Assembly: GCA_964554685.1 (NCBI GenBank)
Contig: CAZKPR010000005.1
Location: 1 to 50,359 of the forward strand
Source of the DNA: an uncultured Leptospirales bacterium
GTDB lineage: Bacteria; Spirochaetota; UBA4802; UBA5550
DNA length: 50,359 bases
Direction: 5' to 3'
The translations under genes were made by a program, and so were the position numbers. Positions 17,659 through 41,275 of this stretch are shown here, piece after piece. The number at the start of each line of letters is the position of its first letter. The first letter of the stretch is position 1. The notes beneath the pieces are model-generated. The model saw only the letters and a list, made by a program, of their open reading frames with translations, was not told where the DNA came from and searched no databases.

Positions 17659-18383
17659 TCAGGATCACGATCCAGGTTTGATTCGATCACGTCGCGCGTC
17701 CGTTCCATGAGTTCGCCGATCCTGTCTAATCCATACCCGGAGGTCTCGATGGGGTCCCCGATCACCACCTCGATACGGCCGGGATGGAACTCGACGCTTC
17801 CCTTGGGCAGGACACGGCGGCTGCCGTTCACCGTGACCGGCAGTACAGGGTAGCTCCTCTCCAGGGCCACGGCGAACCCCCCCTTTTTGAAGGGCAGGAG
17901 ACGGCCATCGGGAGAGCGGGTCCCCTCGGCAAAGAACATGACGCTCGCCCCCCGGGGGAGGCGGTCAAGCCCCTTCCTGATGCTTTTCCTGGCCCGGTCC
18001 GGATCGCGCCGGTCGATAAAGATATTCCTCGATGCATAGAGAGCGTAGCCGAAAAGGGGTACCCTGAGTATTTCCTGCTTGATGATCCAGCGGAACTGGA
18101 CCCCCAGGGAGGTCACGATGGCCAGAATGTCGTACTGGGACTGGTGGTTCGATATAATCACGTAGGAGCGTCCCTTCTCGATTTTCTCCTTCCCCACTGC
18201 GGATACGCGGGTGGCGGACACGAGAAGCATGACCCGGGCCCATATCTTCGAAATTGAAAAGGCGAGATTCCCCGTCCTGCTCAGGAGCGAAGATATCACC
18301 ATGGGAAGGAAGAGAAGGAGGGTCATTATCCCCGCCCAGAGGAATATCCAGCCTATCTTCACCGCCCGCGTTACCGCATTCAT
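17655..18383 (-). CDS. plsC: 1-acyl-sn-glycerol-3-phosphate acyltransferase
   Basis: 242 aa. N-terminal TM helix, HX4D block NHQSQYD, FAEGTRSPDG, and PVLPVTVNGS. Confidence 0.85.
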   Translation of the reverse strand: MNAVTRAVKIGWIFLWAGIMTLLLFLPMVISSLLSRTGNLAFSISKIWARVMLLVSATRVSAVGKEKIEKGRSYVIISNHQSQYDILAIVTSLGVQFRWIIKQEILRVPLFGYALYASRNIFIDRRDPDRARKSIRKGLDRLPRGASVMFFAEGTRSPDGRLLPFKKGGFAVALERSYPVLPVTVNGSRRVLPKGSVEFHPGRIEVVIGDPIETSGYGLDRIGELMERTRDVIESNLDRDPD

Positions 18384-24340: not shown

Positions 24341-27300
24341 ATGAAGCGTCTCATAAATTTCTGCCTGAACAACTCGCTCTTCTTCATCATGCTCTTCATC
24401 GGCATATGCATCGCCGGCGTCGTCAACATGTTCGCGGCGAAGAGGGAGGCCTTCCCCAAGATCGAATACAACTACGTGGTGATCAACACCCTCTACGTCG
24501 GCGCCACCGCCGAGGACGTCGAAAAACTGCTCACCATACCCCTGGAGGATCAGCTCCGGGAAATCGACGGCATCGATGAGCTCTACTCCTCATCATTGGA
24601 GGCGCTTTCCCTTATCGTCGTCAAGCTCGACGCGGACCTGGAGAATGTGGACAAGACCGTCAATGACCTGAAAAACGCCATCGACCGCACGGAGGACCTT
24701 CCCGACGATTCGCAGAAGCCGATCGTCACGGAGCTGAGCACGGCCATGACCCCCATCGTGGACATCGCGCTCACGAAGGAAGGGGGCATACCCACGGACG
24801 AGGCCGAATCCGAGCTCCGGAACCAGGCCAAGATCCTGGAGGACCGGCTCCTTGAGCTCCGGGGCGTCGCCCGGATCGACAAAAAGGGCTACCGCGACCG
24901 GGAAATGCACGTCGAGGTCGATCCCGCCCTGCTCAACCGCTACAAGGTGTCAATGGCTGAAGTCATCATGGCCCTCGCCAAGAAGAACGTCAACATCCCC
25001 GGGGGGCTGATTCGGAACAACGGCAGGGACATCCTCGTGCGCACCATCGGCGAGGTGGAACAGATCGGGGAGATACGGAAGACCCTGGTCCGGATGAACG
25101 ACGCCGGCGGCGGGATCACCATCGGCGACGTGGCGCGAATACGCGACTCCTTCGAGGAAGCGACGATAATCAACAAGACCAACGGGGCCAGCTCAATCAC
25201 CCTGACGGTTCTCAAGAAGGAGTCCGCGGACATCATCGAACTGGTTGACCGGATCAAGCGCGAGGTGGCGACCTACAAGAAGACGGCGCCGAAGGAGTAT
25301 ACCGTCAACGTCCACAACGATCTCTCGTATTTCGTGAAGCGACGCCTGGACGTGCTGGTGGTCAACGGCCTCGGGGGATTCATCCTGGTCCTGATCATAC
25401 TGGTGCTCTCCTATGGATGGCGCATTTCGATACTGACCGCCCTGGCGATACCCTTCGCCATGTTCGCCACGATCGTCTGGATGGTGAGCCAGGACGTTTC
25501 CATCAACCTCAACTCCATGTTCGGCCTCATCATGGCCCTGGGGATGCTCGTGGACAACAACATCGTGGTCTCCGACAACATCTACCGGCACCTCGAGGAA
25601 AAATGGCCCCTCCGCGAGGCCGTCGTCAAGGGGACCGCCGAGGTCATGATGCCCATCGCCGCCACGGCCCTCACCACCATCGCCTCCTTCGCGCCCCTCA
25701 TGTTCATGACCGGCATCATGGGAAAATTCATGTGGGTTCTTCCCGCCGTGGTCACCGTGGCCCTCATCGCCTCGTGGCTCGAGTCGGGCTTCATGCTTCC
25801 CGTGCAGATCCACGAGATGCAGAAGCGCCGGAAAAGCACGGTCACCCTTAAGGAGGAGGAGGGGGGGCGGATCTTCAACGCCATCAGAACGCGGTACCTG
25901 TCGCTTCTCAGGACATGCCTCCGGCACCGCTATTTCTTCACCCTCGGCGTGACCGCCGTTTTCATCGGCACCCTCGCCTTCGGCGTCCTCGCCATGAAAT
26001 TCATTCTCTTTCCCACGGGAGGCATCGAGACGTTCGTGATCAAGGTCGAGATGCCCACGGGAACCTCCGTGACGCGCATGAGCGAAAAGATGTCCGAGAT
26101 CGAAAAAGTCGTGGCCACCCTCCCAAAATCCGAGCTCGACTGCTTCACCTCCCGGGCGGGGATCATCCAGGAGCACCCGGGCGACCCTGACACCAAGCGG
26201 GGAAGCAACTACGGCGTGCTCCTGGTGTACCTCACCCCCGAGGAAGAACGAAAGCGGAAGGCCGATGAGATCATGGACTACGTGAGGCTGAAAACAAAGG
26301 CCCTTTCAGATTTCACCAAGATCGAGTTCAAGCCGATCCGGTTCGGACCGCCCACGGGGCCGCCCATCTATATCACCGTCAAGGGGGAAGACTTCGCCGT
26401 TCTGCGCGAAATCTCCGCCATCTACAAGAAACACCTGAAAACCATACCCGGCCTCAAGGACATCAAGGACAATTACGAGCCGGGAAAGGACGAGCTCCGC
26501 ATTTTCGTGGACGACAGAAAAGCGGCCCTGACGGGCATCAGCGTATTCGATGTCGCGACGACGGTGCGCGCCGCCTATGCGGGCAACGTCTCGACCTCGA
26601 TTAAGAAAACAGAGGAGAAGATCGATATCCGCGTGCAGTTCCCCGAGGGACAGCGGAAGAACCTCGACAGCTGGAGATCGATCAAGATAATCAACCGGAT
26701 GGGCAACCTGATACCCCTGGAGATGGTGGCCCGTGTGGAGCGGAAGCAGGGCATCTCGGTGATCTACCGCAAGGGGTGGCGGCGCAACATCAACGTTTCG
26801 GCGGAGATCGACGAGAAGGCGAAGGACGTCACCTCCGTGAGCGTGAACACCATGCTCATGAAGCGCTTCGCGGACATGCCGGACCGGTATCCCGGCTACA
26901 CCGTGGATTACGAGGGGGAATTCAAGGACACCCAGGAATCGATCTCGAACCTGATGCGCTCCTTCCTCATCGCCGCCCTGGCGATATACATCATCCTCAT
27001 CGCCGTCTTCCGGTCCCTGGCCCAGCCGGTCATCATCATGGCGATCATACCCCTCGCCCTGGTGGCCGTGGTCTGGTCCTTTTTCTTCCATGGCCACCCG
27101 ATATCATTCCTGGCCCTCATGGGCGTCGTGGGTCTCGCCGGCGTGGTGGTCAACAATTCCATCGTGTTTCTCGACTTCGTGAACAGCGGGCGGTGCGCCG
27201 GCCTTTCCGCCGTCGAGGCCTCACTGGAGGCCGGGGCAAAGCGGATGCGCCCCATCATACTCTCCTCCCTGACCACGGTCATGGGACTGGCCCCCACGGC

Positions 27301-27652
27301 CTACGGCATCCTGGGAAACGACCCGTTTCTGAAGCCGATGGCCCTTTCCATGGTATGGGGCCTGGCCCTGGGAACCGTCATCACGCTCTTCGTAACGCCT
27401 GTCCTCTACACGATTTTCACGGACCTCTCCGTACGGATATTCAGGCGCGACATGCTGTGCGGTAAAATCGACGTGTCCTATCATGACGACGAAGAGGAGC
27501 GCGCCGCGAGTGAGCGAATCGAATCCCGTATTGCCGGGGAACTCTCCGCGCGCCTGAAGGGGGAAATCACCGATGAGCTCGCCGCGCGGTTCGCCCGGGA
27601 CGACGGCGGTGATTCCACACCGTCGCGACGGAGCGGCAAGAAGAAGCGGTAA
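24341..27652 (+). CDS. RND efflux transporter permease subunit (AcrB/ACR_tran type) with charged C-terminal tail
   Basis: 1103 aa. AcrB-like N-terminus (TM1, then a large periplasmic loop). Repeated 6-TM halves, for example GLIMALGMLVDNNIVV and VVGLAGVVVNNSIVFLDF. About 80 aa of acidic/basic tail. No adaptor (MFP) or OMF gene on either side. Confidence 0.9.
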   Translation: MKRLINFCLNNSLFFIMLFIGICIAGVVNMFAAKREAFPKIEYNYVVINTLYVGATAEDVEKLLTIPLEDQLREIDGIDELYSSSLEALSLIVVKLDADLENVDKTVNDLKNAIDRTEDLPDDSQKPIVTELSTAMTPIVDIALTKEGGIPTDEAESELRNQAKILEDRLLELRGVARIDKKGYRDREMHVEVDPALLNRYKVSMAEVIMALAKKNVNIPGGLIRNNGRDILVRTIGEVEQIGEIRKTLVRMNDAGGGITIGDVARIRDSFEEATIINKTNGASSITLTVLKKESADIIELVDRIKREVATYKKTAPKEYTVNVHNDLSYFVKRRLDVLVVNGLGGFILVLIILVLSYGWRISILTALAIPFAMFATIVWMVSQDVSINLNSMFGLIMALGMLVDNNIVVSDNIYRHLEEKWPLREAVVKGTAEVMMPIAATALTTIASFAPLMFMTGIMGKFMWVLPAVVTVALIASWLESGFMLPVQIHEMQKRRKSTVTLKEEEGGRIFNAIRTRYLSLLRTCLRHRYFFTLGVTAVFIGTLAFGVLAMKFILFPTGGIETFVIKVEMPTGTSVTRMSEKMSEIEKVVATLPKSELDCFTSRAGIIQEHPGDPDTKRGSNYGVLLVYLTPEEERKRKADEIMDYVRLKTKALSDFTKIEFKPIRFGPPTGPPIYITVKGEDFAVLREISAIYKKHLKTIPGLKDIKDNYEPGKDELRIFVDDRKAALTGISVFDVATTVRAAYAGNVSTSIKKTEEKIDIRVQFPEGQRKNLDSWRSIKIINRMGNLIPLEMVARVERKQGISVIYRKGWRRNINVSAEIDEKAKDVTSVSVNTMLMKRFADMPDRYPGYTVDYEGEFKDTQESISNLMRSFLIAALAIYIILIAVFRSLAQPVIIMAIIPLALVAVVWSFFFHGHPISFLALMGVVGLAGVVVNNSIVFLDFVNSGRCAGLSAVEASLEAGAKRMRPIILSSLTTVMGLAPTAYGILGNDPFLKPMALSMVWGLALGTVITLFVTPVLYTIFTDLSVRIFRRDMLCGKIDVSYHDDEEERAASERIESRIAGELSARLKGEITDELAARFARDDGGDSTPSRRSGKKKR

Positions 27653-28635: not shown

Positions 28636-31600
28636 ATGAAACAGTACAGCTTGAGTGAAGAAATCAACTCCGCCCTGGAGGGGCTCAAGGCCCTTAATCC
28701 CGATATTGCCGGAAGCCGCGGGTCGGACCGGGATTCCGAAACTGGTTCCCGGGCACACCGCCTCCAGAAAGTCCTGGTGGCAAACAGGGGCGAGATCGCC
28801 AAGCGTTTCTTCCTCGCCCTTCACGAGGAAGGCATCCCCTCCGTCGCGTCCGTCGCCGACCCGGACCGCGGGCAGTCCTGGTATGAGTTCGCCGACGAGG
28901 TGATCTTCATCGGCGACCCCTACCACTACGCGAGCATTCCCGTCGTCATCGCCGCCGCCCTCCTTTCGGGGGCCAATGCCGTGTATTCCGGCTATGGCTT
29001 CCTCTCTGAAAACGCCGGGTTCGTCAGGGCGATCGATTCCCTCCGGGACTCAGGGGAAGACATCATCTTCATGGGTCCCGATTATGAAACCATGCGCAGG
29101 GTGGGCAGCAAGATCGAGGCGCGCCGCCTCGCCCGCGACAACGGGATACCGGTTCTCGACAGCACCGGGGCACTTTCCGCCGACGATCCCCCGGCCGTCG
29201 CCCGGGAGGGAGCCCGGCTCGGTTATCCCCTGTACCTCAAGCTCTCTTCGGGCGCGGGGGGACGGGGCATCTACAGGGCCGAGGACGAGGCGGCCCTCAT
29301 CACCGCCGCGGGAGAAGCGGCCCGCCTTGGCCGGGAGCTCTACGGCGACTCCAGCTGTTACCTGGAGCGCCTCATCCGGGACCCGGTCCATTTCGAAGCG
29401 CAGATATTCAACGGCCGCGCCATCGGCATACGGAAATGCGCCGTTCAGAGAAGGAACCAGAAAATCATAGAGGAGAGCGGGCACTGCTTCCTCGATGACA
29501 CCGTCGCCAGGGACCTCCTCGGCGCCGCGGAAAAGATGGCGGTGCTTTCCGGCTACGACCATTCCGGCGGCGCCGGGACCGTGGAATTTCTGCTTGATTC
29601 GGAGACCGGCCGATTCGGCTTCATGGAGATGAACTCCCGCCTCCAGGTGGAGTACGCCGTGACGGACCAGTCTCTCGGGATCGACCTTGCGAAATGGCAG
29701 ATCCTTTTCTTCGACGGCCGCGAATCGGAGATTCCCTGGCCCGGCGGCGAGGAACCACCGGCATCCCATTCCATCGAATGCCGCATCTACGCCGAGGAGC
29801 CGGAAAACGACTACCTCCCCTCGCCGGGGAAAATCATCGAGCTCGATCTTCCCACGTTCAACGGCATCAGGTGCGATTTCGGCTTCATGGAGGGCGATAC
29901 CGTTCTTCCCATGTACGACCCCATGATTGGGAAGCTGATCGCCCACGGCGCCACCCGGCGGGAAACCATCATACGGCTCGAGCGGGCGCTCCAGGAGCTC
30001 TACATAGGAGGCGTCAAGACCAATATCGGCCAGCTTCTCCGGATCGTGCGCCACCACGCCTTCATTCGCGGCGACTACACCAACACCATACTCGGCATGT
30101 ACCCCGAGCTCGCCAGTGCCAGGACGGCCCTTTCCCCGGGGGCGTCCGAGGACAGGCGCGCGATGAAGCAGACCATCTTCGGCGCCTTCACGGAGCATCT
30201 CCGCCACCTGCGGCACTCCGTCGGAGAATTCATCGTCATAGCCGGCCTGGGAAGCGTCCTTGACCCCAACGCCGACCCCGGCGCTCCCTCCCGCTACACC
30301 GTGGAGCACGAGGGCCGGCGCGTGACCGTTGATTTCCTACAAACCGCCATCGACACCTTTCACGCCTTTGTTAACGGCCTTTACAACGGGAAGATACTCC
30401 TGACGTCCATGAACGACCGTTGCGACGATTTCCTCATCGTCTTCGGATCGAGTTCGTACCGCCTGCGGGCGAACCGCCATCCAGGATTCATCGAGCTGAG
30501 GATGAAGGACGACTTCAACAAGATCAACTATTACCGTGTCGCCGTCGCCACCGAGGGCTCGCCTGAGGAAACGACGGCCCGGAAAGTCTGCTCCCCCTTC
30601 CAGGGAACCTTCGTGTCATTCAGCCGGGACCTCGGGGCCGGCGACACCGTGCGGGAAGGAGAGCCCCTCATGGTGCTTTCCTCCATGAAAATGGAGACGG
30701 TCATCACCGCCCCCGCGGGGGGCAGGATCATCTCGCTGATCGAGGACGGCGACACGGAGAGGCTGCATCTCACGCGCACGGCGGGGGGACGCGTAATGGG
30801 AAGAAGCGTCAACGAGGGCGAGGTGCTCGCCGTGATCGAAACGGCGGATATTCCTTCCGAAACTGACGAGGCGCCGCACCACCCGGAGTCAACGGTGCCA
30901 CCCGCACCGCCAGCCTCGGTTCTTGATCACCTGTTCCGCGATGACTTTTCCGACGCGGTTCTGGAAGACCCGGCGGGTCGCATCAAAACCGCCCTGGAGG
31001 TGCTCCACGCCGCCACTCTCGGATTTGTCCAGCGGTCATCGATACTGGAATCTCTGAAAAAGACGGTGCGGCGGATTCCCCCCGGTATCGACGGGAACCT
31101 CATCTCCGACGAGGTCATCGACCTCATGAATTCCATCATACTCTTTCATACCGGCATCAAGAAGCTCTTTTCTCCCGTGATCACCGAAGAGGGCCTCTCC
31201 TTCCTGGAGGAGCTGGACCACCACATAGCCGGGGGAGGGAAGGCCAGGAGCCAGGCCTCCCGGCCCTTCGAGCGGCTCCTGAGGCGCGTCGTCGACGCCT
31301 ATGGCATCTCCCGCTGGGAAGAGCGCTCGGAGATGAGCGAGCTCGCGCACAATTACGTATTTCTTCTCCTGGGCCGCGCCTACCGGTTCAGCCTGGACCA
31401 GACGGACCTGATCAAGAAGATCGTGGAGATCATCTCCGCCATCAGGCGACCCGAAAAAAACACGCTGGTCACCCTCGCCGGCCTTATGGAGCAGGAACAG
31501 GCCGAGCGTGACGATTCTCTGCTTAAATTCATCAAGCGGATCCTCGCCGCTCAGTTCGATGACGCCGACCTTGCCGCCTTCAGGGAACGGGAGCTCTCAC

Positions 31601-34488
31601 CGTCGGTTAAAAATCTCTACGTATCATTCCGCGAGCGCTTCACCGAGGGAATCGCCTCGCTCTGCGCCGCCTCGCTCTCGGCTCCCGCCGCGGGAAAGGA
31701 CGTGGATTCCCTCCTCCCTCCCGGCGTGCGCGGGGATATCACCCGCCGCCTCGCCGTACTCGGCCGATCATGTTCGGCGCGTCGGCTCTATTCCCCCATG
31801 GAGAACGTATGGCCCTATCTTCTGGACTCCACGACGGAATCACCGAAGCGGAGTTTCATGTTATTCACCCGCGCGGCGACGACTCCCGCGGGTGCGGGAA
31901 TCGCCGGGGCCCTCGCCGAAGCCCTCCAGGTGGCGGCACTGTACCGCCAGGTTGAGCCGGGCGATGACTGCTGGATTGAAGTCTTTGCCGAGGACGCCAC
32001 CCTTTCGTGGGTCGATGAAGCCGGCGACGGTTTCCTGCCGTACAGGGAATTCAGGAGCATCTGCGAATCGTCACTGCCGGCCAGAAAAAACGGCGGCATT
32101 CTCAGGTTCATAATCAACATCGGCGTCCGCTTCCCGTTTTCCGGGGAGACCCGCCGGAGAAGCGTCCTTGCCTGCCGGCACAACGATTTCCTCTCGATTG
32201 AATTCCTCCTCGCCATGGACCGGACGAACCCCTACCACGATCCAGGGGAAATGACGATCCCGAACCAGCGCCTCATCGACCTCGGCAAGTGGCCGATCGA
32301 GGCGTGGGCTGAATCATGCTTCGATCCCGGCACGATGCGCGAAATCCGTATACCCTCGATCGACGAGACGAACGAGGCGACGCCCGGAGACCTGCGTATC
32401 ATAAGCCGCCCTCCGGGGGCGAAGATTTACCAGGGGCTCGTCGGAGGACTCCCGGCCTGCTTCTACATGAAGGATTCCCGGGTCAGCGGCGGCTCCACGG
32501 GAAGCAGGGAAGGTCTCAAGTACGTCGCCGCGGCCTACCTGGCCTACATGAACGACTGTCCGCTCTATGTCTGGAACGACAGCGCCGGGGCCAACATTAT
32601 GGAGGGCGTGATATCCCTCAACAGGGGCGCCCAGGGATTCATGATCAACGCCCTTCTCACGGAGAGGGCGCGTGACGAACGCGTGCGGAGCTACATCGAA
32701 CATGCCGCCGATCCCGATCTTAAAAAAATCACGGGGGACATCGACCGGGAATACGGTTTCGGCGACGGAACGCCGCGGGAGCGAAGGTCATTCCAGCTCA
32801 CCGCGATCGGCATCGGCTCTTCGGCCGGTCTGGACGTGTACGGTTCGAGCCAGGCCTCGATACAGATACTCCTCGATTCAGAGGAATCGTACCGCGTTCT
32901 CACGGGCTCGAAGGTGGTCCACACCGTCATAGGCGAAGAGATCACCAACTATGACATCGGCGGAGCCAAGATCCTCGGCACCTGGACCGGCATCGTCGAC
33001 GTGGTCGCCGCGGACAAGCTGCACCTCATTGCATGCATCCACCTGGCCCAGGGTATTTTCACGTCCCGGGATGAACTCCCGGGAATCGCCCGTTCCGGCG
33101 CGTCCCCGGGGCCCCACGTGGTCGCCGATCCGATCGCCCTCAACGAATCGATGATACGGGCACACGTCGACTGCGGGGTGTTCTGGCCCTTCAAGGAGAA
33201 CTACTACGCCGCGGAATCGCTCATCGGCGGCTTCGCCCTTATCGGAGGACGGCGCGCCCTCATCATGGGTCCCCGGACCCACGGGGGCCTCCGCTCCCTC
33301 GCCACGGTGATCAAGGCCAGGGAACTTCTCAGGACGGCCCACCGGACCGGTTCCCACCGCGTGCTCGTTTTCGGGGCGCGGTGGCAGCAGACGCCCGCCA
33401 TCCATGAACAGATGCAGATGAGGCCGCGGATAGATTTCATGAACTCCATGATGCGATCCCGGGGCCTGCAGATTCACATCATCACCCATCCCGGGGGCCT
33501 GAGGTGTTTTGAACTGAACTGCGCCGCCGATTCGCTCATCTACGTGAGGAGCGGGAAGGAAAGCGCCCCCGACTGGACCTTCGCCCAGAAGAACGCGGGC
33601 TTCATCGTCGACTCCCTCGGCGCGGCCTTCGACCTGGCCCACCGCCTGATCGCCATGATCGACCCCGCCGCGGGAACGAACGATTTCATCTTGCCGCGGG
33701 GCGAACCCGCCATCCCTCGCGACGCCGCCGAGCCGTACGATATAGTAGAATCGGTGATCCTCCACGCTTTCGACGAGGGTTCCTTTCTCGAGTTCCACCG
33801 CGACATGAACAACCCCATCACGGGGCCGCACCTGATCACGGGACTCGCGGGACTTGAAGGCCGCACCGTCGGCGTCATCGCGGACCAGCCCCTCCTGAAG
33901 GGAGGAGGCGCGGACGCCTTCGGCACGGAGAAGTTCCGCGTGTTCACCGAGTTCCTCTCGGGCCACGGGATACCCCTGGTCATGCTTTCGAACTCCTCGG
34001 GATTCGTCCCGGGATCCCAGCAGGAGCGCCACCGGATCCAGGCCATCGGCGCGGAGTCCCTTGACGCCAACATCCTCGGCACCATTCCCGTGGTGAGCGT
34101 GGTCCTCAACCAGAATTACGGCGGCCGGCTCATCCACGCCTACAACCGGTTCCTCCGCCCCGGCATCGTCTACCTCGCCCTGGAGAAGGCGATCATGGCC
34201 GTTATCGGCGTCAGCGCGGCCTTTGATCTCCTGTACGGAAAACGGTACGCGCGCCTTCTTGAAAAAGGGGACGTGGAATCGGCCGAAGAGCTGAAACGGG
34301 AATTTTCGGAAAGCTACATCGAAAAGGCCAGGGCGGAGAATGACGGCGTTGCATCAGGCCTTGTGGACTGGACGATACCCGTCGTGGCGGAGCTCAGGAC
34401 GCACCTGATACGCGGGATGAAACTGGCGTTCGAGCGATGCCGGGCGGCCTTTGGGGACGAAGATACTTCCGGGAAAGGAACGACTTAA
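28636..34488 (+). CDS. single-chain multidomain biotin-dependent acyl-CoA carboxylase (BC - BCCP - long linker - carboxyltransferase)
   Basis: 1950 aa with no stop or frame break. Biotin carboxylase ATP-grasp: KVLVANRGEIAKRFF, GYPLYLKLSSGAGGRGI, FMEMNSRLQVEYAVTD. Biotinyl domain EGEPLMVLSSMKMETVITAP (Lys codon at 30688-30690). About 450 aa without motifs I recognise. Two-lobed carboxyltransferase: GGSTGSREGLKYV...NDSAGANIMEG; TVGVIADQPLLKGGGADAFGTEK...SGFVPGSQQE. Confidence 0.85.
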   Translation: MKQYSLSEEINSALEGLKALNPDIAGSRGSDRDSETGSRAHRLQKVLVANRGEIAKRFFLALHEEGIPSVASVADPDRGQSWYEFADEVIFIGDPYHYASIPVVIAAALLSGANAVYSGYGFLSENAGFVRAIDSLRDSGEDIIFMGPDYETMRRVGSKIEARRLARDNGIPVLDSTGALSADDPPAVAREGARLGYPLYLKLSSGAGGRGIYRAEDEAALITAAGEAARLGRELYGDSSCYLERLIRDPVHFEAQIFNGRAIGIRKCAVQRRNQKIIEESGHCFLDDTVARDLLGAAEKMAVLSGYDHSGGAGTVEFLLDSETGRFGFMEMNSRLQVEYAVTDQSLGIDLAKWQILFFDGRESEIPWPGGEEPPASHSIECRIYAEEPENDYLPSPGKIIELDLPTFNGIRCDFGFMEGDTVLPMYDPMIGKLIAHGATRRETIIRLERALQELYIGGVKTNIGQLLRIVRHHAFIRGDYTNTILGMYPELASARTALSPGASEDRRAMKQTIFGAFTEHLRHLRHSVGEFIVIAGLGSVLDPNADPGAPSRYTVEHEGRRVTVDFLQTAIDTFHAFVNGLYNGKILLTSMNDRCDDFLIVFGSSSYRLRANRHPGFIELRMKDDFNKINYYRVAVATEGSPEETTARKVCSPFQGTFVSFSRDLGAGDTVREGEPLMVLSSMKMETVITAPAGGRIISLIEDGDTERLHLTRTAGGRVMGRSVNEGEVLAVIETADIPSETDEAPHHPESTVPPAPPASVLDHLFRDDFSDAVLEDPAGRIKTALEVLHAATLGFVQRSSILESLKKTVRRIPPGIDGNLISDEVIDLMNSIILFHTGIKKLFSPVITEEGLSFLEELDHHIAGGGKARSQASRPFERLLRRVVDAYGISRWEERSEMSELAHNYVFLLLGRAYRFSLDQTDLIKKIVEIISAIRRPEKNTLVTLAGLMEQEQAERDDSLLKFIKRILAAQFDDADLAAFRERELSPSVKNLYVSFRERFTEGIASLCAASLSAPAAGKDVDSLLPPGVRGDITRRLAVLGRSCSARRLYSPMENVWPYLLDSTTESPKRSFMLFTRAATTPAGAGIAGALAEALQVAALYRQVEPGDDCWIEVFAEDATLSWVDEAGDGFLPYREFRSICESSLPARKNGGILRFIINIGVRFPFSGETRRRSVLACRHNDFLSIEFLLAMDRTNPYHDPGEMTIPNQRLIDLGKWPIEAWAESCFDPGTMREIRIPSIDETNEATPGDLRIISRPPGAKIYQGLVGGLPACFYMKDSRVSGGSTGSREGLKYVAAAYLAYMNDCPLYVWNDSAGANIMEGVISLNRGAQGFMINALLTERARDERVRSYIEHAADPDLKKITGDIDREYGFGDGTPRERRSFQLTAIGIGSSAGLDVYGSSQASIQILLDSEESYRVLTGSKVVHTVIGEEITNYDIGGAKILGTWTGIVDVVAADKLHLIACIHLAQGIFTSRDELPGIARSGASPGPHVVADPIALNESMIRAHVDCGVFWPFKENYYAAESLIGGFALIGGRRALIMGPRTHGGLRSLATVIKARELLRTAHRTGSHRVLVFGARWQQTPAIHEQMQMRPRIDFMNSMMRSRGLQIHIITHPGGLRCFELNCAADSLIYVRSGKESAPDWTFAQKNAGFIVDSLGAAFDLAHRLIAMIDPAAGTNDFILPRGEPAIPRDAAEPYDIVESVILHAFDEGSFLEFHRDMNNPITGPHLITGLAGLEGRTVGVIADQPLLKGGGADAFGTEKFRVFTEFLSGHGIPLVMLSNSSGFVPGSQQERHRIQAIGAESLDANILGTIPVVSVVLNQNYGGRLIHAYNRFLRPGIVYLALEKAIMAVIGVSAAFDLLYGKRYARLLEKGDVESAEELKREFSESYIEKARAENDGVASGLVDWTIPVVAELRTHLIRGMKLAFERCRAAFGDEDTSGKGTT

Positions 34489-34865
34489 GACGCCTCTTCG
34501 TCCCCTTTCCCCGCCAGCTCCTCCATGCGCGCGGAAGAAATACGCTCCCAGTCAGGGTCGATGAACCTCCCGCCCTCGCGAATAAAATGGACTATGTCGA
34601 AGGTTTCCCGGTAATGCTCGAGTCGGGAGCCCCGGTCGGGATTCTGCTCGATGTAGAGCAGCCTGTCCGGATCGAGGCCGAATTCCTCCACGATCTGCCC
34701 GGCGAGGGAGTCGGCGCAGGTGGTCACGCTCGTGCCGGGGTTCTCCTCGTGGAGCTCCGTGACCACGACGACATCGCGATCCCTGCCCCTGATGATCCGC
34801 AGCCCGCACCGCGAGGGCACGTCCCAGTGTCCCCTGAAGGAGTAGATTGTGTCCATGTACTTCAT
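34485..34865 (-). CDS. hypothetical protein, last gene of the minus-strand lipid operon
   Basis: 126 aa. It starts 6 nt after the radical SAM stop. Codon usage is GC3-rich like its neighbours. No family recognised. Its stop shares the tetranucleotide TTAA (34485-34488) with the convergent carboxylase stop. Confidence 0.5.
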   Translation of the reverse strand: MKYMDTIYSFRGHWDVPSRCGLRIIRGRDRDVVVVTELHEENPGTSVTTCADSLAGQIVEEFGLDPDRLLYIEQNPDRGSRLEHYRETFDIVHFIREGGRFIDPDWERISSARMEELAGKGDEEAS

Positions 34866-34871
34866 GGGAAA

Positions 34872-36161
34872 TCAGCTCCCCGACTGGGCCGAAATTTCCG
34901 AGGCGAAGGCTTTCCTCATGAGATCGCGCCGACGGGGACGGTAGGTGCCCATGGCCATCTCGCGGTCTATCGCCTTCTTGAGGAGCCTGAACATCTTGTA
35001 CTGCTGCGGTTCGTCCTGGTAGAATCTCTCCCAGGCGAAATGGTAGAGCTCCTGGAGGCGCTCGGGGCTCATCAGCTTCGGCTGGATTACGACCTTCCCC
35101 GCGTTGTAATCGTCCCAGTCGTGATTGATGATCCTCTTTTCCTTCCTCATGTCGTCGTAGGCCTTGGTGTGCGGGAAGGGGGTGAGGACCGTGAACTCCG
35201 CGAGATCAAGATCGATCTCCAGGAGAAAATCAATGAAGCGCTTGATGTACTCCTCGTCGTGGTTGTCCATGCCGAGGAGGATGGTACCCTCCACGGCGAT
35301 ATCGTGGTCGTGGTAGCGGCGTATCCGCTCCTTTATGTAGTCCGAGGTATCGAACACCGCCTGGTACACGTACCAGGCTCCGGCGCGTCGCGCGAGTTCG
35401 AGCACCTCGGGCTTGTCCTCGATGGTGTGGCTGCACCAGTTCTTCTTGAGGGGCTCCATCTCCCTGAACAGGTCCATCTCCCACTGCGTGTCCTGGGCAA
35501 GGGAGTTGTCCACCACGAAAAGGCGGTTATTCTCCACCAGGGCCATCTCCTCGATGGCCCTGTCGATCGGCCGGGGGCGGAACTTCCGTCCCCCCAGGAA
35601 GGCCACGGCGCAGGGATAGCAGTTGAAGCGGCATCCGCGCGAGGCGTGCACGAGGTCAACCATCTGCACGCCACGGTAATAATAGAGGTCCCGGTTGTAG
35701 ATGCTCCGGCGGGCGGGTCCCACGATCTCTATCGGCGGCGGATCGGCAAGGTAGTTGTAGACCCGCTTGAGCTTTCCCGCCCCGAAATCGCGGAATATCT
35801 CCTCCATCCGTCCCTCCGCCTCTCCCAGGAAAACGGAGTCTGCATGGCCCAGGGTCTCCTCGGCATGGAGCATCGTCGCGATGCCGCCGAAGATGACCTT
35901 CACGCCCCGTCGACGGTACTCATCCGCGATTGCCCACCCGCGCTTGACCTGGGTCGTCAGCATCATGGATATGCCCACGAAATCGACGGGATCATCGTAG
36001 TTGAACTTTTGGAGGTTCTCGTCCACGAACTCAACGTCAACATGGTCGGGTAGTGCCGCCGCCATCACGGCGGGACCGTGGGGCGGCAGGTTGAAGGTCG
36101 TCTGGCCTTCGAGCTTTTCCCAGCGGGGATATATGAGCCTGAATGTTATCTGTCGTGCCAT
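34872..36161 (-). CDS. B12-binding-domain radical SAM enzyme (class B type)
   Basis: N-terminal Rossmann-like B12 domain (DFVGISMMLTTQV...VIFGGIATMLHAEE). Radical SAM cluster motif SRGCRFNCYPCAV. The ATG at 36161 is preferred; an alternative GTG lies at 36221. Confidence 0.8.
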   Translation of the reverse strand: MARQITFRLIYPRWEKLEGQTTFNLPPHGPAVMAAALPDHVDVEFVDENLQKFNYDDPVDFVGISMMLTTQVKRGWAIADEYRRRGVKVIFGGIATMLHAEETLGHADSVFLGEAEGRMEEIFRDFGAGKLKRVYNYLADPPPIEIVGPARRSIYNRDLYYYRGVQMVDLVHASRGCRFNCYPCAVAFLGGRKFRPRPIDRAIEEMALVENNRLFVVDNSLAQDTQWEMDLFREMEPLKKNWCSHTIEDKPEVLELARRAGAWYVYQAVFDTSDYIKERIRRYHDHDIAVEGTILLGMDNHDEEYIKRFIDFLLEIDLDLAEFTVLTPFPHTKAYDDMRKEKRIINHDWDDYNAGKVVIQPKLMSPERLQELYHFAWERFYQDEPQQYKMFRLLKKAIDREMAMGTYRPRRRDLMRKAFASEISAQSGS

Positions 36162-36226
36162 GGGGGTACTCTCTCGCTTCACGGACAGTACTGTCAATAG
36201 TTTTTCGAACGCACGGATCACTCCCC

Positions 36227-36874
36227 TCAGTCGCGCGTTTCCTCGGTCTCGATCAGTTCCAGCACCAGGGAGTACGCAGGGGTGCCCGCGGCGGTGAAAT
36301 CGATGCGCTCCGGCATCCCCATGCGGCGGCCGGCCGAATAGCGGATCACGCGTTCCCGCGTGCGCGACGCGCCGTAGACCGCCACCTCGATCTCGCCGCC
36401 CTCCCTCCTGATGACGTCTGTCACGGTCTCTTCAGAACGGTAGCGCGCAACGCGGCTCCCGTCACGCAGCGTTCCCGATTCAACGGGCTTTCCGGGGGGC
36501 GCGAAAAGAATAAGCCTGATATCCCTGATCATCCCCGCGACAAAAGCGGGAGAGGAGAAGGGCCCGATGGCCCGGTGGATCACGAGGCCGCCATCATGCT
36601 CCGCGTCGAGGAACACCAGCCCCTCGATGGACATTAGTGAGAAGCGGATCCTTCCGGTCCTTTCCTCGAAGGCGAAGACGCCGATCATCGACGCCGTGGC
36701 GCCCCCGGGGAGGGTCCCGGTTATGGAATGAATGAGGCGCCGGCTTCCCGTCACGAAGGGGGAATCAACCCCGCCCGCGTCCGCGTCCCCGCCGGCGAAG
36801 GGAGTGATGGCGGGAAGGCCGGCGCAGGCCGTCAACAGAACAAGCACGATAAGGAAAGGAGGAAAGCGCATCAT
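36227..36874 (-). CDS. lipoprotein, possibly DUF3261-like (ApeN-like)
   Basis: Lipobox MMRFPPFLIVLVLLTACAG. About 215 aa. Its start overlaps the LolA-like stop (ATGA at 36871-36874). The family assignment rests on size and context only. Confidence 0.55.
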   Translation of the reverse strand: MMRFPPFLIVLVLLTACAGLPAITPFAGGDADAGGVDSPFVTGSRRLIHSITGTLPGGATASMIGVFAFEERTGRIRFSLMSIEGLVFLDAEHDGGLVIHRAIGPFSSPAFVAGMIRDIRLILFAPPGKPVESGTLRDGSRVARYRSEETVTDVIRREGGEIEVAVYGASRTRERVIRYSAGRRMGMPERIDFTAAGTPAYSLVLELIETEETRD

Positions 36875-37503
36875 ATCCCCTTGAAAAGCGAATCGGGCAG
36901 CCTCTCGTTCAGGCGGACACCCGAGAACTCGAGAAGGGTGTAGGACCTTTCGCTTTCGAATATCTTCACCGTGCGTATCACACCGGGCGTGGAGGAAAGC
37001 CGGAGCTCGATCCGCTGGATGAATTCCGCCATGGAACGCTCCTTCGGCGTGAGTACGATCACCCTCCCGGGGCGAAGGATCGGGGTGAAATCGGGGTTGG
37101 CGTCGAAGCTCCCCTTCATCCAGAGGGTGATCTCCTGGAGCACGACGCGCATCGACTGGAGTCGCGCCGTTGAATCGCTCGTCATCCGCCCGCCGCGCTC
37201 GACGTAGCGGCGCACGGACCGGTTATGCATGAGGAGAACGCTCCGGACCGGGGACTCGTATTCCCACCGGAGGGACGCAGGGGCCTGGAAATAAAACGTT
37301 CCCTTCGAAACGAGGGGCCGCGCCAGTATGGGCATCTGCTTCGTCTGGGTGAAATTCGCGCGGACGGAGGTGATCTCACGGGCCGTCGAGCGAATCTCCT
37401 CCCAGCCATCTCCCCAGGCGAGAAGCGACAGGGAAAGAATGGCCGGGACCGCCCTGGCCGCGAAGGGGATTCTCGTTGTCGTTGTATTCCTGAAATACCG
37501 CAT
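36871..37503 (-). CDS. LolA-like outer-membrane lipoprotein carrier family protein
   Basis: 210 aa. Signal peptide, then ITSVRANFTQTKQMPILARPLVSKGTFYFQAPASLRWEYESP, typical of LolA-fold proteins. Confidence 0.7.
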   Translation of the reverse strand: MRYFRNTTTTRIPFAARAVPAILSLSLLAWGDGWEEIRSTAREITSVRANFTQTKQMPILARPLVSKGTFYFQAPASLRWEYESPVRSVLLMHNRSVRRYVERGGRMTSDSTARLQSMRVVLQEITLWMKGSFDANPDFTPILRPGRVIVLTPKERSMAEFIQRIELRLSSTPGVIRTVKIFESERSYTLLEFSGVRLNERLPDSLFKGI

Positions 37504-37527
37504 TGGATTCTTCCCGGCGCCGGGGAG

Positions 37528-38265
37528 TCAGATCATCCCGCCGTTCACGCCTATCACCTGTCCCGTAATGTAGGACGCCTCGTCGGAGCAGAGGAAGCGC
37601 ACCGCCGCGGCGACCTCCTCGGGCCTTCCCACGCGGCCCATGGGTATGACATGCTTGATCATCTCCACCGGTGCGTCCCTGATCATGTCCGTCTCTATGA
37701 GTCCCGGGGCCACGACGTTGACCCGTATCCCCTTTTTCGCAACTTCCGAGGCGACCGTTCTGCTGGCGCCGATGAGACCCGCCTTCGCCGCGGAGTAGTT
37801 CGCCTGCCCCTTGTTGCCTATGAGCCCCGCCACGGAAGCGATGGAAACCACGGAGCCCTTCTTCTGTCTCAGCATCTTCTTCAGGGCCGGCTTCGTCATG
37901 TTGTAAAAGCCTTTCAGGGTCGTGGCGATGACGGCGTCCCATTCGGACTCCTGCATCATGAGGAAGAGGTTGTCCGCCGTGATCCCCGCGTTGTTCACCA
38001 GGGCATCGAGCCTGGGAAAACGCGCGGTAATATCCTCCATCGCCTTTTCCGCTTCCGCCGCCGACGCCACGTCGAATTTCATCGCCTCGCCGTCGCCGCC
38101 GGCCCCCCGTACGAGGTCCATGGTCTCCGCTGCGGCCGCGTCGTTCGAACGATAGTTGACGATGATATAATAGCCGTCGGTGGCGAGCCCCACGGCAATG
38201 GCGCGGCCGATCCCCCTGCTCGCGCCGGTTACGATGGCCGTTTTCCGCCCCTCGTTGATTTCCAT
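37528..38265 (-). CDS. fabG: 3-oxoacyl-ACP reductase (SDR, FabG type)
   Basis: ATG at 38265 preceded by [28 protein letters not shown], catalytic S...YSAAK, and PGLIETDM. The 122-codon upstream extension in the ORF track overlaps the dehydratase gene and is rejected. Confidence 0.9.
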
Positions 38266-38285
38266 CTTTCTCCTCCTGGACTCCG

Positions 38286-38729
38286 CTACTCTTCGGGCCT
38301 GAACACCTGAAGATGAATATCCCCGGCAACCCCGGATCCGGTTTCGACGATGCCCGCCACCTCGACGTAGTCGCGCTCCTGCTTCACTCTCCTCGCCGTT
38401 ACGGTCAATCGCTCTCCAGGGGGTATGCTCGTCACCGAGAAGACCGCCTTCTTGACTCCCACGAGCCACCCGGGACGCGTATTCTCTTCCGGATTCCCCG
38501 TTTCGGCGGCATTCTTCATTCCGAAATAGGCGCCTATGCTCTGGGCCACGAGCTCGATCATGACGATGGGGTTGACGCCGCGGTCCCCGGAGAGGGGCCA
38601 GTGGGGCCCCGCGACCGCGGTGGTGACGCATCGTTCTTCATCGAACTCGATGATCTCCTCGATGAGCCTCATCCTTCGTCGGTGAGGAATCAATGTCTCA
38701 ATGTCATGCATGATCTGCGTCCCAGGCAA
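38286..38729 (-). CDS. hotdog-fold beta-hydroxyacyl-ACP dehydratase (FabZ/ApeI-ApeP-like)
   Basis: About 141-147 aa (start at 38729 or ATG at 38711). [14 protein letters not shown] opening motif. [13 protein letters not shown] central helix. Confidence 0.75.
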
Positions 38730-38766
38730 CGGGTGAGGAATCAGGCTATTTCATTCGAAGTAATGG

Positions 38767-38788
38767 TGTCAATAAAAATAAGTTGACA
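38767..38788. promoter_or_regulatory. inverted repeat / back-to-back -35 boxes in the divergent promoter region
   Basis: TGTCAA (38767-38772), A/T-rich 10 nt, TTGACA (38783-38788). Each arm reads TTGACA toward one of the two divergent operons. The downstream -10 candidates are weak (AAGACT on the plus strand). Confidence 0.3.
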
Positions 38789-38829
38789 GCATCCCGCTCC
38801 GCGTCGAAGACTTTTCGGCGTTACATACC

Positions 38830-39105
38830 ATGAAGAGGGAGCGTGCAATGGGGGAATTAATCGCCGAGCTGAAGGAAAAAATCATCGAGACCCTCGACCT
38901 GATCGATGTCGTACCCGCCGATATCGCCGAGGAGGACCCCCTCGTGGGAGGAAAGCTCGGCCTTGACTCTATCGACATACTCGAGCTCGCCATGATGGTG
39001 GACAAGGAATACGGATTAAAGATAGACAGCAAGGAGCTGGGCAGGGAGGTCTTCTCAACCCTGAGGACCCTCGCCGATTACATCACGAAGCACCGCCAGG
39101 GATAG
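38830..39105 (+). CDS. acyl carrier protein (dedicated, non-housekeeping context)
   Basis: About 85-91 aa. Phosphopantetheine site LGLDSIDILELAMMVDKEYG. Confidence 0.85.
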   Translation: MKRERAMGELIAELKEKIIETLDLIDVVPADIAEEDPLVGGKLGLDSIDILELAMMVDKEYGLKIDSKELGREVFSTLRTLADYITKHRQG

Positions 39106-39109
39106 CCCA

Positions 39110-41269
39110 TTGTCAACCAGGGTCTTCATCACGGGAAGGGGAATCATCAGCCCCCTGGGGCGCGGCGTTGAGGCGCACCTCGATTCCCTGCGCCGGGGCC
39201 GTTCAGGCATCGGGCCCCTGGCGCTGTTCGATACCGCCGCCGGCGCCCTGCCCGTGGGTGAAATCACCGGTTTCACCTCCGAAGCAGCGGTTCCCCGGAC
39301 CCATCAACTGGCGATCGAAGCCGCCCGGGACGCACTGGGAGGATCAACGGAGCCGCCCGATGCGATCGTCATCGGCACCACCACGGGGGGCATGTCAACG
39401 ACGGAATCGCTCCTGAAAAGCGGCGAACGCGACCCCGCGCTCTTCTTCCATCATTCCACCTCGTCGGTGGCGGAATACTGCGCGGGGATCCTCGGGTGCC
39501 GGGGACTCGTTATCACCGTCACCACGGCCTGCTCCTCCGGGGCCGCCGCCATACGCCTCGCATGGGAGCTCGTCAGGACGGGAAGGGCGCGCCGGGTCCT
39601 CGCCGGGGGCGTCGATTCGCTCTGCCGCCTCACCTACTACGGGTTCAACGCCCTCCAGCTGATCGATCCCTCCGGGGCCCGCCCGCTGGATCGCGCGCGC
39701 CGCGGCATGTCCGTGGGCGAGGGGGCGGCCATGCTTCTCCTCGAGGGAAGGGACGGGGTCCCCGATGGCGCCCCGGCGGAGATCATCGGGTGCGGTCTTT
39801 CCTGCGACGCCCATCATCCCGCGGCTCCCCACCCGGAGGGCGCGGGGGCGCGGGAGGCCATGAGGCGCGCCATCAACGCGGCGGGCCTCTCACCATCCGG
39901 CATTTCCTACGTGAACCTGCACGGCACGGGAACCATCGACAATGACCTGGCCGAGGCCCGGGCCCTTCGCTCCCTCTTCGGCGACGCCCTCCCCCCCCTC
40001 TCGTCGACGAAGGGGGCCACGGGTCACACCCTGGCCGCGGCCGGCGCCATCGAGGCGGTAATCGCAACGATCGTGCTCGAACGGGGATTCATGCCGGCCA
40101 ACACGGGGTGCACGGAACCCGACCCGGAGCTCGGGGTCACGCCCCTCCTCGAAGCGCGGGAGGGCGAGGTCGACGCGGTGCTCTCCAATTCCTTCGGCTT
40201 CGGCGGCAACAACGCCTCCCTGGTCCTGGCCGGCCCGGGGGGAGACCGTTCCCCGGCAGGGACGCAGGCCTGTTACCTCGAGGTGCTGGGCTTCTCCTGC
40301 GTCACGGGGGCCGGGAACATGGCGGCCACGCTGGATCGCCTCAACGAGGGAAAATCCTGCACCGGCACCCTGCCCCTGGGGGAGGTATTAACCCAGCTTC
40401 CTCCACGGGAGGTCCGGCGCCTGAAGCGGCTTCCCCGCATCGCCCTTTCGCTGGCCATTGACGCACGGGAGAGCGCGGCGGAGGCACCCGCCCCCGCGGC
40501 GCTCTTTTTCGGGACCTCCTGGGGGCCCCTCTCGGAAACTCATGACTTCCTCACGAAGCTCTTCGAATCAGGGGAGCAGTTCACGAGCCCCACGGATTTC
40601 GTCGGCTCGGTCCACAACGCCCCGGCCGGCCAGGCGGCCATCCTGCTCGGAGCCCGCGGCGCCAATATTACCGCCACGGGGGGCGACTACTCCTTCGAGG
40701 AGGCCCTCTTCGCGGCCCTTCTCGCCGCCGAGCCCGGCGAGGGGCTTCTGGTCTTCGGGGCCGATGAATATCAGGAAACCCTCTCGCCTCTCTTCGACCC
40801 ATCGGTACGCGCCGCGGTTGCTCCCTCGGACGGCGGGGGCGCCCTCTTTCTTCGCAAGACGGAGGAACCGCGGGGCACAAGGATCGTGCCCGCGTTTTTC
40901 GGCAACCCGGGGACCGATGCCGGTTGGTCCGATTCCCTGGTCGACTCCCTGGGAGGGGCCAGGGCTATTGGGGAAACCTACGGCGCGGTCATGGCCGGCA
41001 TTCCCTCGGGAGAAAGAAAGGTCTGCGAAGAGCAGCTCGCGCGCGTGATCTCGTCCACCGGCTTTGCTGGACCGGTCATCGACTACCGCGCCCTTCTCGG
41101 CGAGTACGGCGCCGTATCCGCCACGGCTGCGGCCCTCGCCGCCCGTTTCGTCAGCGACGGCTCGTTCCCCGGGTCCATTGCCGGGGCCGGCGTGGCGGTC
41201 CCCGCGGGGAAGGGGATACTGCTCCTGGGCCTGGGGCGCTTTGTTACCGCCGTCGGCATCATCCCCTGA
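39110..41269 (+). CDS. fused beta-ketoacyl-ACP synthase (KS) and chain-length-factor-like (KS-N-like, no nucleophile) didomain protein
   Basis: TTG start 4 nt after the ACP stop. N-terminal half: VTTACSSGAAAIRLA (active Cys), CDAHHPAAP, NLHGTGT, NSFGFGGNNASLVL. C-terminal half is KS-like but has TATGGDYSFEEAL where the Cys should be, and no His-His pair is seen. Confidence 0.85.
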   Translation: MSTRVFITGRGIISPLGRGVEAHLDSLRRGRSGIGPLALFDTAAGALPVGEITGFTSEAAVPRTHQLAIEAARDALGGSTEPPDAIVIGTTTGGMSTTESLLKSGERDPALFFHHSTSSVAEYCAGILGCRGLVITVTTACSSGAAAIRLAWELVRTGRARRVLAGGVDSLCRLTYYGFNALQLIDPSGARPLDRARRGMSVGEGAAMLLLEGRDGVPDGAPAEIIGCGLSCDAHHPAAPHPEGAGAREAMRRAINAAGLSPSGISYVNLHGTGTIDNDLAEARALRSLFGDALPPLSSTKGATGHTLAAAGAIEAVIATIVLERGFMPANTGCTEPDPELGVTPLLEAREGEVDAVLSNSFGFGGNNASLVLAGPGGDRSPAGTQACYLEVLGFSCVTGAGNMAATLDRLNEGKSCTGTLPLGEVLTQLPPREVRRLKRLPRIALSLAIDARESAAEAPAPAALFFGTSWGPLSETHDFLTKLFESGEQFTSPTDFVGSVHNAPAGQAAILLGARGANITATGGDYSFEEALFAALLAAEPGEGLLVFGADEYQETLSPLFDPSVRAAVAPSDGGGALFLRKTEEPRGTRIVPAFFGNPGTDAGWSDSLVDSLGGARAIGETYGAVMAGIPSGERKVCEEQLARVISSTGFAGPVIDYRALLGEYGAVSATAAALAARFVSDGSFPGSIAGAGVAVPAGKGILLLGLGRFVTAVGIIP

Positions 41270-41275
41270 GGCGCC

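Follow-up and report, generated by a model that had tools for sequence, protein, structure and literature searches.

We describe here a gene for a single-chain, biotin-dependent carboxylase in a 50,359-nucleotide stretch of DNA (the window, by which we mean the whole stretch analysed) from contig CAZKPR010000005.1 of assembly GCA_964554685.1, an uncultured Leptospirales bacterium. An earlier note on this DNA, made from the letters alone, had seen an uninterrupted open reading frame (ORF) of 1950 amino acids with a complete biotin carboxylase (BC), a biotinyl domain with an SMKME motif, whose Lys codon it placed at 30688-30690, and a position directly after birA, and all of this was borne out. 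The profile search it had proposed found the three BC domains (Biotin_carb_N 43-153, CPSase_L_D2 159-356, Biotin_carb_C 381-485), Biotin_lipoyl and Carboxyl_trans, the last split over three stretches in the carboxyltransferase (CT) part, and found no ACC_central. From sequence and predicted structure, we read the ORF as a homomeric biotin-dependent acyl-CoA carboxylase, most likely an acetyl-CoA carboxylase (ACC) making malonyl-CoA, and would give this reading a probability of roughly 65%. The features of the gene and of its surroundings are collected in Table 1.

Table 1. Domains of the carboxylase and neighbouring genes in the window, with the evidence for each assignment
Feature	Position (nt)	Strand	Basis
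Single-chain biotin-dependent carboxylase, whole ORF including stop codon	28636-34488	+	1950 aa, uninterrupted
Biotin carboxylase domain, aa 43-485	28762-30090	+	Three Pfam BC domains, PDB matches, invariant motif residues
Linker at BT-domain position, aa 490-650 (putative)	30103-30585	+	Position between BC and BCCP, as BT in PCC-alpha
BCCP/biotinyl domain, aa 654-735	30595-30840	+	Pfam Biotin_lipoyl 654-706; K685 codon 30688-30690
Central domain, helical subdomain, aa 762-1042, CDN-like (predicted)	30919-31761	+	All-helical AlphaFold2 model; long co-linear Foldseek alignments to yeast/human ACC CD
Central domain, alpha/beta subdomain, aa 1046-1190, CDC-like (predicted)	31771-32205	+	AlphaFold2 topology, Foldseek; missing in some family members
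CT N lobe, aa 1263-1475, family-invariant GSSAGLD	32422-33060	+	Pfam Carboxyl_trans profile ~133-213; PccB residues 89-248
Extra middle CT lobe, aa 1516-1675, degenerate crotonase-like	33181-33660	+	Profile-profile comparison, AlphaFold2 repeat
CT C lobe, aa 1718-1940, NYGGRLI motif	33787-34455	+	Pfam Carboxyl_trans profile 250-477; PccB residues 287-512
RND permease	24341-27652	+	Upstream of biotin protein ligase
birA-type biotin protein ligase, group I, no helix-turn-helix	27573-28397	+	Pfam BPL_LplA_LipB and BPL_C; TIGR00121 163 bits against cutoff 83
Second B12-binding radical SAM gene, convergent with carboxylase	34872-36221	-	Pfam B12-binding and Radical_SAM; weak NCBIfam matches
Putative lipoprotein	36227-36874	-	Signal peptide with LTAC lipobox in translation
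LolA-like carrier	36871-37503	-	Pfam LolA; LolA2_flexi 92 bits, under cutoff
FabG/FlxB-like ketoreductase (SDR)	37528-38631	-	Pfam/NCBIfam matches
Acyl carrier protein (ACP)	38830-39105	+	NCBIfam PRK09184
KS-CLF fusion condensing enzyme	39110-41269	+	PRK09185; Pfam ketoacyl-synt and Ketoacyl-synt_2
Lipid-biosynthesis B12/radical SAM protein and polysaccharide-deacetylase/methyltransferase fusion	41276-44064	+	TIGR04072 392.7 bits against cutoff 360; Pfam

The fusion is genuine and maintained by selection. Among 5.8 billion proteins, more than 120 homologue clusters at 90% identity were found, most of them about 1,860-2,030 aa long with at least 97% query coverage and 40-84% identity. They were drawn from NCBI, JGI, ENA and Logan assemblies and labelled mostly as Spirochaetota, Leptospirales or Smithellaceae metagenome-assembled genomes; among cultured organisms, the gene is carried for example by Leptospira fletcheri (WP_135768911.1) and by Leptospira sp. 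GIMC2001 (WP_272534572.1), the latter with the complete genome CP115468.1. That selection acts on the fused protein is evident because, in an alignment of 41 sequences, the BC catalytic residues K159, K202, H252, E331, N333, R335, Q337, V338 and E339 and the biotinylation triplet M684-K685-M686 are invariant. The regions joining the catalytic parts are conserved within the family as well, with invariant G796, K1218 and W1224 as examples. An assembly or annotation artefact joining separate alpha-like and beta-like subunit genes would have only a general prior behind it, the window being a metagenome-type contig, and we found no specific support for it; against more than 100 full-length homologues with the same co-linear architecture in independent assemblies, complete genomes included, and against the conservation of linker and central regions across the family, its probability becomes negligible, and mis-assembly is ruled out for practical purposes. 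The homologues go by no other names than 'hypothetical', 'carboxyl transferase domain-containing protein' and 'carbamoyl-phosphate synthase subunit L', NCBIfam has no model specific to the family, and our literature searches found no description of it. Ahead of the BC, the chain begins with a short N-terminal extension (aa 1-42; nt 28636-28761) that carries a family-conserved motif, AL..L..LNP, in which N21 is nearly invariant.

Judged by its scores, the BC is of bacterial type, unlike the eukaryotic BC: bacterial BCs are matched with 250-310 bits, whereas no BC of fungal ACC scores above 131 bits. The closest PDB sequences are those of methylcrotonyl-CoA carboxylase (MCC) alpha, bacterial BC, pyruvate carboxylase and propionyl-CoA carboxylase (PCC) alpha (E 1e-85 to 1e-64), with MCC-alpha and bacterial BC in the upper part of this range (1e-85 to 1e-79). 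A single phmmer stretch to 7ybu_A covers aa 43-706 and thereby spans the linker between BC and BCCP. Within the linker itself, no BT domain was found by Pfam, and hhalign against the BT of alpha subunits gave 1% probability; we regard it as a putative BT counterpart, assigned from its position alone.

Between the biotinyl domain and the CT lies the least conserved part of the family (residues ~740-1250, 19-46% identity to the window protein). As had been noted from the letters, this stretch carries no recognisable motif: it gave no Pfam match at E<=10, ACC_central (PF08326) included, nothing among PDB sequences by phmmer or profile hmmsearch, and no match by hhalign to other domains of the same carboxylase. 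We modelled aa 730-1265 with AlphaFold2 (AF2) from 40 family sequences without templates (mean pLDDT 79.6, pTM 0.52) and compared the model with 350,542 PDB chains using Foldseek. Ranks 1-26 were occupied entirely by eukaryotic ACC central-domain (CD) structures (E 4e-6 to 1.5e-2), including the human ACC1 filaments 8xl0 and 8xkz (E 4e-6), the yeast holoenzyme 5csl (2.6e-5), the isolated yeast CD 5i6e (9e-5), Chaetomium CD-CT constructs and the AC3-AC5 fragments 5trc and 5cs4 (rmsd 4.5-6.4 Å over ~173-187 columns); below rank 26, the scores fell sharply, and the remaining matches were unrelated proteins (E>=0.1, probability <0.2). The predicted alpha/beta subdomain, with pLDDT mostly 80-94, runs b1-b2-b3-long helix-b4-helix-b5-b6-b7, which is exactly the strand and helix order reported for the CDC domains. 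Hunkeler et al. described CDC1 and CDC2 as sheets of six strands in which two long helices interrupt the strand order at b3/b4 and b4/b5, CDC2 carrying an extra C-terminal strand, and their study of the yeast CD found no close structural homologues of CDN or CDC (PMC4833862). Because the AF2 model matches eukaryotic ACC CDs alone in the PDB, we conclude that the central region is, as far as the model goes, a compact and cryptic counterpart of the eukaryotic CD, with a CDN-like part and one CDC-like domain. This supports the suggestion already made in the earlier note, whose proposed check by AlphaFold and Foldseek thus turned up no other family within the first 26 ranks.

Some findings weigh against this likeness. 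Global TM-scores of the model against ACC CDs are low, at ~0.2, which is expected of a hinged multi-domain region. The resemblance appears only between a predicted model and solved structures, comparisons by HMM and HH methods being not significant; the best hhalign match between the central region and a fungal CD alignment reached 8% probability, again not significant; in this match, the two sequences are co-linear where the CD begins, and the family-invariant G796 is included. The fungal ACC fragments in that alignment had been found using as bait a segment of yeast Acc1, and all of the proteins retrieved carry PF08326. Homology and convergence with the eukaryotic CD are therefore inseparable on these data, since the likeness rests on a predicted model and the profile-profile comparison with the fungal CD is not significant.

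The central region is also rare and variable. When 1.84 billion representatives were searched with its profile, no more than 55 clusters at 50% identity came up; most were family-sized or fragments, and the four unusually long ones that were scanned with Pfam showed the same architecture and no ACC_central. At two loci (L097 and L105, which correspond to P0087, ~1,725 aa), query residues ~984-1209, that is the CDC-like alpha/beta subdomain, are absent, and the helical central part and all three CT lobes are retained. Within the helical subdomain, aa 977-995 (about nt 31564-31620) form a poorly conserved, gap-rich, low-pLDDT loop, its sole long disordered insert.

For the CT, two lobes had been expected; the N and C lobes are indeed present, yet the region has three crotonase-like lobes, not two. 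The outer lobes are readily assigned, since hhalign matches the N lobe to the N half of beta subunits with 98.5% probability and the C lobe to beta subunits with 99.9%. In the PDB, the closest relatives of the CT part are S. coelicolor PccB, the 12S transcarboxylase, archaeal and Thermotoga PCC-beta and AccD5/AccD6; PccB is matched at E 4e-36 by phmmer and at 9e-49 by profile, whereas eukaryotic ACC CT structures reach the CT profile only at E 0.04-0.3 and phmmer found no CT match in the fungal ACC fragments. The CT is thus of bacterial type, unlike the eukaryotic CT. In agreement, the AF2 model of aa 1231-1950 (pLDDT 83.5, pTM 0.87) has as its top Foldseek matches exclusively bacterial and archaeal beta subunits (E ~1e-22, best 5e-23), with a TM-score normalised to the target (TMt) of up to 0.80, for AccD6.

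The additional lobe lies in a segment (aa ~1490-1690) that is well conserved, with 40-60% column identity, and has no Pfam match. BLASTP of this lobe against the C lobe found nothing, and the kinship is detectable by profile-profile comparison only: hhalign aligned it with the C lobe of the same protein at 80% probability (E 1.4e-5, 175 columns) and, from 24 ordinary beta subunits, with the C half at 92.9% (E 3.7e-7) and the N half at 86% (E 4.8e-6, 182 columns). In the AF2 model, a third hairpin-helix-strand repeat stands at this place, with the highest pLDDT of the model. The middle lobe is probably non-catalytic, because it has ITHPGGL... where the catalytic glycine motif aligns. As to its arrangement, the alignments that superpose well on whole beta subunits (TMt 0.63-0.80, rmsd 3.6-5 Å) extend over only ~445-500 columns including gaps, and alignments running from the N lobe to the C lobe (~710 columns) have an rmsd of ~18 Å; if the model holds, the canonical two-lobe CT unit must therefore come from two adjacent lobes. 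Given the sequence identity of 21-24%, we hypothesise that this pair most likely consists of the middle lobe and the C lobe; the N lobe, which is of the catalytic type, would then sit outside its canonical place. While the CT fold itself is well studied, a three-lobed CT was not seen among the solved CT structures retrieved in our analysis.

Set beside known systems, the window protein shares with eukaryotic ACC (yeast Acc1, human ACC1; 5csl, 5i6e, 8xl0) the single chain, the order BC-(BT)-BCCP-central domain-CT and, in the predicted fold, both a helical part and a CDC-type alpha/beta domain in the central region. It differs in having BC and CT of the bacterial YCC type and an extra third CT lobe, and in a central region of ~430 aa with one CDC-like domain, compared with ~700 aa (CDN, CDL, CDC1, CDC2) in eukaryotes, without the regulatory loop between b2 and b3 and without detectable sequence similarity. 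The two-subunit carboxylases (S. coelicolor AccA2/PccB/AccB, M. tuberculosis AccA3/AccD5/AccD6, PCC and MCC) are, in both sequence and fold, the nearest kin of its BC and of its outer CT lobes (N and C). In these, however, alpha and beta are separate chains assembled as alpha6beta6, while here they are fused via a CD-like domain and the CT is three-lobed. The characterised bacterial long-chain acyl-CoA carboxylase (LCC; 4rcn, 1093 aa) also unites BC, BCCP and CT in one polypeptide, at about half the size, as the earlier note had said; it has neither a central domain nor a third lobe, and its CT similarity is weak (E 1.6e-7, against 4e-36 for PccB).

The earlier note had singled out the eukaryote-like ACC architecture in a bacterium; it was unaware of SACE_4237 from the actinobacterium Saccharopolyspora erythraea, a homomeric carboxylase of ~200 kDa with a central region, which has end-to-end homology with eukaryotic ACC and a CT that groups with the eukaryotic CT (Livieri et al. 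2019; PMC6491548). The present family, found in Spirochaetota and Smithellaceae, has neither of these two properties and would represent a different clade. Were it a divergent member of the eukaryotic/actinobacterial lineage gained by horizontal transfer, the shared domain order, the similar size (~210 kDa) and the CD-like predicted fold would all be accounted for. We nevertheless consider such an origin very improbable in view of the missing ACC_central match, the gap in score between bacterial and fungal BC, the CT profile that finds PccB far ahead of any eukaryotic CT, the absence of any phmmer match to fungal CT, the small set of central-profile clusters whose four scanned long members lack ACC_central, and a third CT lobe foreign to eukaryotic ACC. 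On these score comparisons, made without a tree or the SACE_4237 sequence, the carboxylase falls outside the eukaryotic/actinobacterial homomeric ACC clade. It is set apart from all of these enzymes by three traits occurring together, namely BC and CT of bacterial type, a CD-like scaffold that is not recognisable by sequence, and an additional third lobe in the CT.

The enzyme most likely functions as any swinging-BCCP acyl-CoA carboxylase. The adjacent BirA-type ligase would biotinylate K685, the N-terminal BC would carboxylate the biotin using ATP and bicarbonate, and the BCCP domain would swing over to the C-terminal CT, which would hand the carboxyl group to acyl-CoA. The scaffold of ~430 aa between BCCP and CT, itself non-catalytic, presumably tethers and orients BC and BCCP relative to the CT; in the latter, a third, degenerate and probably non-catalytic crotonase lobe separates the conserved N lobe from the conserved C lobe. 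Malonyl-CoA from this enzyme would feed the neighbouring type II lipid cluster of ketosynthase-chain length factor (KS-CLF), ACP and ketoreductase (KR) and, in relatives, PfaA-like megasynthases or polyketide synthases (PKSs).

With respect to the substrate, in the comparison of CT pocket residues that had been suggested, I1833, a near-invariant isoleucine in the motif NYGGRLI, aligns with the PccB specificity residue D422, and the top PDB match of the CT is 1xnw, the D422I mutant of PccB. Diacovich and colleagues are said to have reported in 2004 that S. coelicolor AccB has Ile at the D422 position and that D422I lets PccB use acetyl-CoA. The C-lobe oxyanion glycines G1829-G1830 are conserved. 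The clues to substrate that I1833 and the GSSAGLD motif offer are weak. In the spirochaete genomes examined by Lombard and Moreira, canonical BC and CT subunits of ACC were missing (PMC3199775), and the carboxylase may explain malonyl-CoA production in some Spirochaetota without them.

Several points speak against acetyl-CoA carboxylation feeding a dedicated pathway. By sequence, the closest CTs are of the propionyl-CoA/methylmalonyl-CoA type (PccB, 12S, MmdA), and one specificity residue gives little ground for favouring acetyl-CoA. In the N-lobe oxyanion site, the second glycine (PccB G183) is replaced by an invariant leucine (AGL, aa 1397-1399, in GSSAGLD), so that catalysis may differ in detail from that of PccB. 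Furthermore, the gene stands in a housekeeping context without a synthase in Smithellaceae locus L083 and in Leptospira locus L110, the latter beside mreBCD/pbp2, and a dedicated-supplier role may accordingly hold in some lineages only.

A carboxylase acting on another acyl-CoA (propionyl-, butyryl-, branched or long-chain), and supplying the adjacent pathway with methylmalonyl- or alkylmalonyl-CoA as extender unit in place of malonyl-CoA, is the alternative that we take most seriously, though we judge it unlikely. It would fit the best CT matches (PCC beta, 12S transcarboxylase, MmdA) and the presence, among the Foldseek matches, of the alkylmalonyl-forming carboxylases 5inf, 5ing and 5ini and of the mycobacterial long-chain complex; many YCC enzymes are moreover promiscuous, SACE_4237 taking both acetyl- and propionyl-CoA (PMC6491548). 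The Ile at the D422 position tells against it, as does synteny with PfaA-like synthases and type II KS/CLF systems, which are normally malonyl users, and the B12-radical SAM and SAM-methyltransferase genes of the window could branch the product after assembly.

The family context was drawn from 29 loci (about 27 distinct), obtained from metagenome contigs and exact-protein look-ups. A contig scan started from the full-length alignment used motifs of the BC domain, and 79 of 80 loci were ordinary accC/alpha-subunit genes, which we used solely as an outgroup source of alpha and beta subunits. A biotin protein ligase gene adjoins the carboxylase at 13-14 loci and bioY at five. In P0166 (2456 aa), the same architecture is followed by a C-terminal BPL_LplA_LipB domain (aa 2210-2331). 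This protein, found via the central-domain profile, joins carboxylase and biotin ligase in one chain as a Rosetta-stone fusion. Another homologue, P0171 (2316 aa), is extended at its N-terminus by ~220 aa.

Condensing enzymes lie within 10 kb of the carboxylase at about 15 of the about 27 distinct loci. Sets of ACP, KS, CLF and KR genes accompany those relatives of the carboxylase that have at least 50% identity, with the full window-like set in L092 and L093. At L098, L104, L108, L111 and L112, PfaA-like megasynthases (KS-AT-6xACP-KR-DH) end directly upstream of the carboxylase, and the gene order in L111 (1-16605) and L112 (1-16474) is megasynthase-birA-carboxylase-bioY. A KS-AT-ACP-TE PKS lies upstream in L096 and L106, and a PKS-nonribosomal peptide synthetase in L082. 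These neighbourhoods are consistent with an enzyme that provides malonyl-CoA and is in many cases, though not in every one, devoted to a secondary-lipid or polyketide synthase. The earlier proposal that the enzyme supplies an extender unit thus finds backing in family-wide synteny with birA, bioY and condensing enzymes; the association is not universal, as L083 and L110 show, and we infer the substrate. The megasynthases of these five loci exceed 3,000 aa and comprise KS, AT, six tandem ACPs, KR and PS-DH, with an NMO-type enoylreductase at the N-terminus according to precomputed Pfam annotation; the arrangement in L111 and L112 looks like a self-contained 'secondary lipid' operon.

In the current view, a homomeric ACC with a central domain is a eukaryotic enzyme, the one characterised exception being actinobacterial, and a paper from 2024 still presents homomeric ACC as eukaryotic (PMC11077971). 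Against this background, the enzymology proposed here is as expected; what surprises is that a CD-like domain is predicted in a second bacterial lineage, unrelated to the first, and that the CT has three lobes. The family is a new data point on the origin of eukaryotic ACC architecture, and its bacterial BC and CT, joined by a cryptic CD-like scaffold, could make it a small model from prokaryotes in which to study how the central domain works. More speculatively, the family may form a separate, possibly ancient bacterial lineage of CD-bearing homomeric carboxylases and, in addition, its catalytic N lobe may face the C lobe within one chain, the degenerate middle lobe taking the canonical place of the N lobe; that both parts hold together we regard as doubtful. 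If they did, bacteria would have invented the 'eukaryote-specific' central domain of ACC, before or independently of the eukaryotic/actinobacterial clade, and a complete CT active site would be built without the usual inter-subunit dimer interface. In practical terms, metabolic engineering could profit from a malonyl-CoA supplier that is encoded by one gene and accompanies PUFA-synthase-like and polyketide clusters.

Turning to the local neighbourhood, the genes at 36227-44064 form an aryl-polyene/flexirubin/ladderane-like type II lipid cluster, to which no product is assigned; an acyltransferase gene (17655-18383) and the RND pump lie near it. Phosphatase sensors of the SpoIIE/PP2C type recur near the carboxylase, at 44195-46984 in the window and in L081 (4177-5634), L082 (4517-9820), L090 (523-1929) and L110 (7335-9833). 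In L082, the phosphatase is fused to a Ser/Thr kinase and stands directly upstream of the carboxylase, and the Leptospira phosphatase of L110 likewise stands directly upstream. In eukaryotic ACC, the central domain is a site of regulation by phosphorylation. Spirochaetes, however, are rich in such phosphatases, so that the recurrence seen here may be due to chance. On the 3′ side of the carboxylase, an ORF on the plus strand (34437-36053) that overlaps its stop codon was first taken for a conserved unknown protein and then rejected as probably spurious, because its translation is rich in V, L, H, G and R and a radical SAM gene occupies the opposite strand. This convergent B12-radical SAM gene is kept near the carboxylase in L086, L088, L090, L092 and L094.

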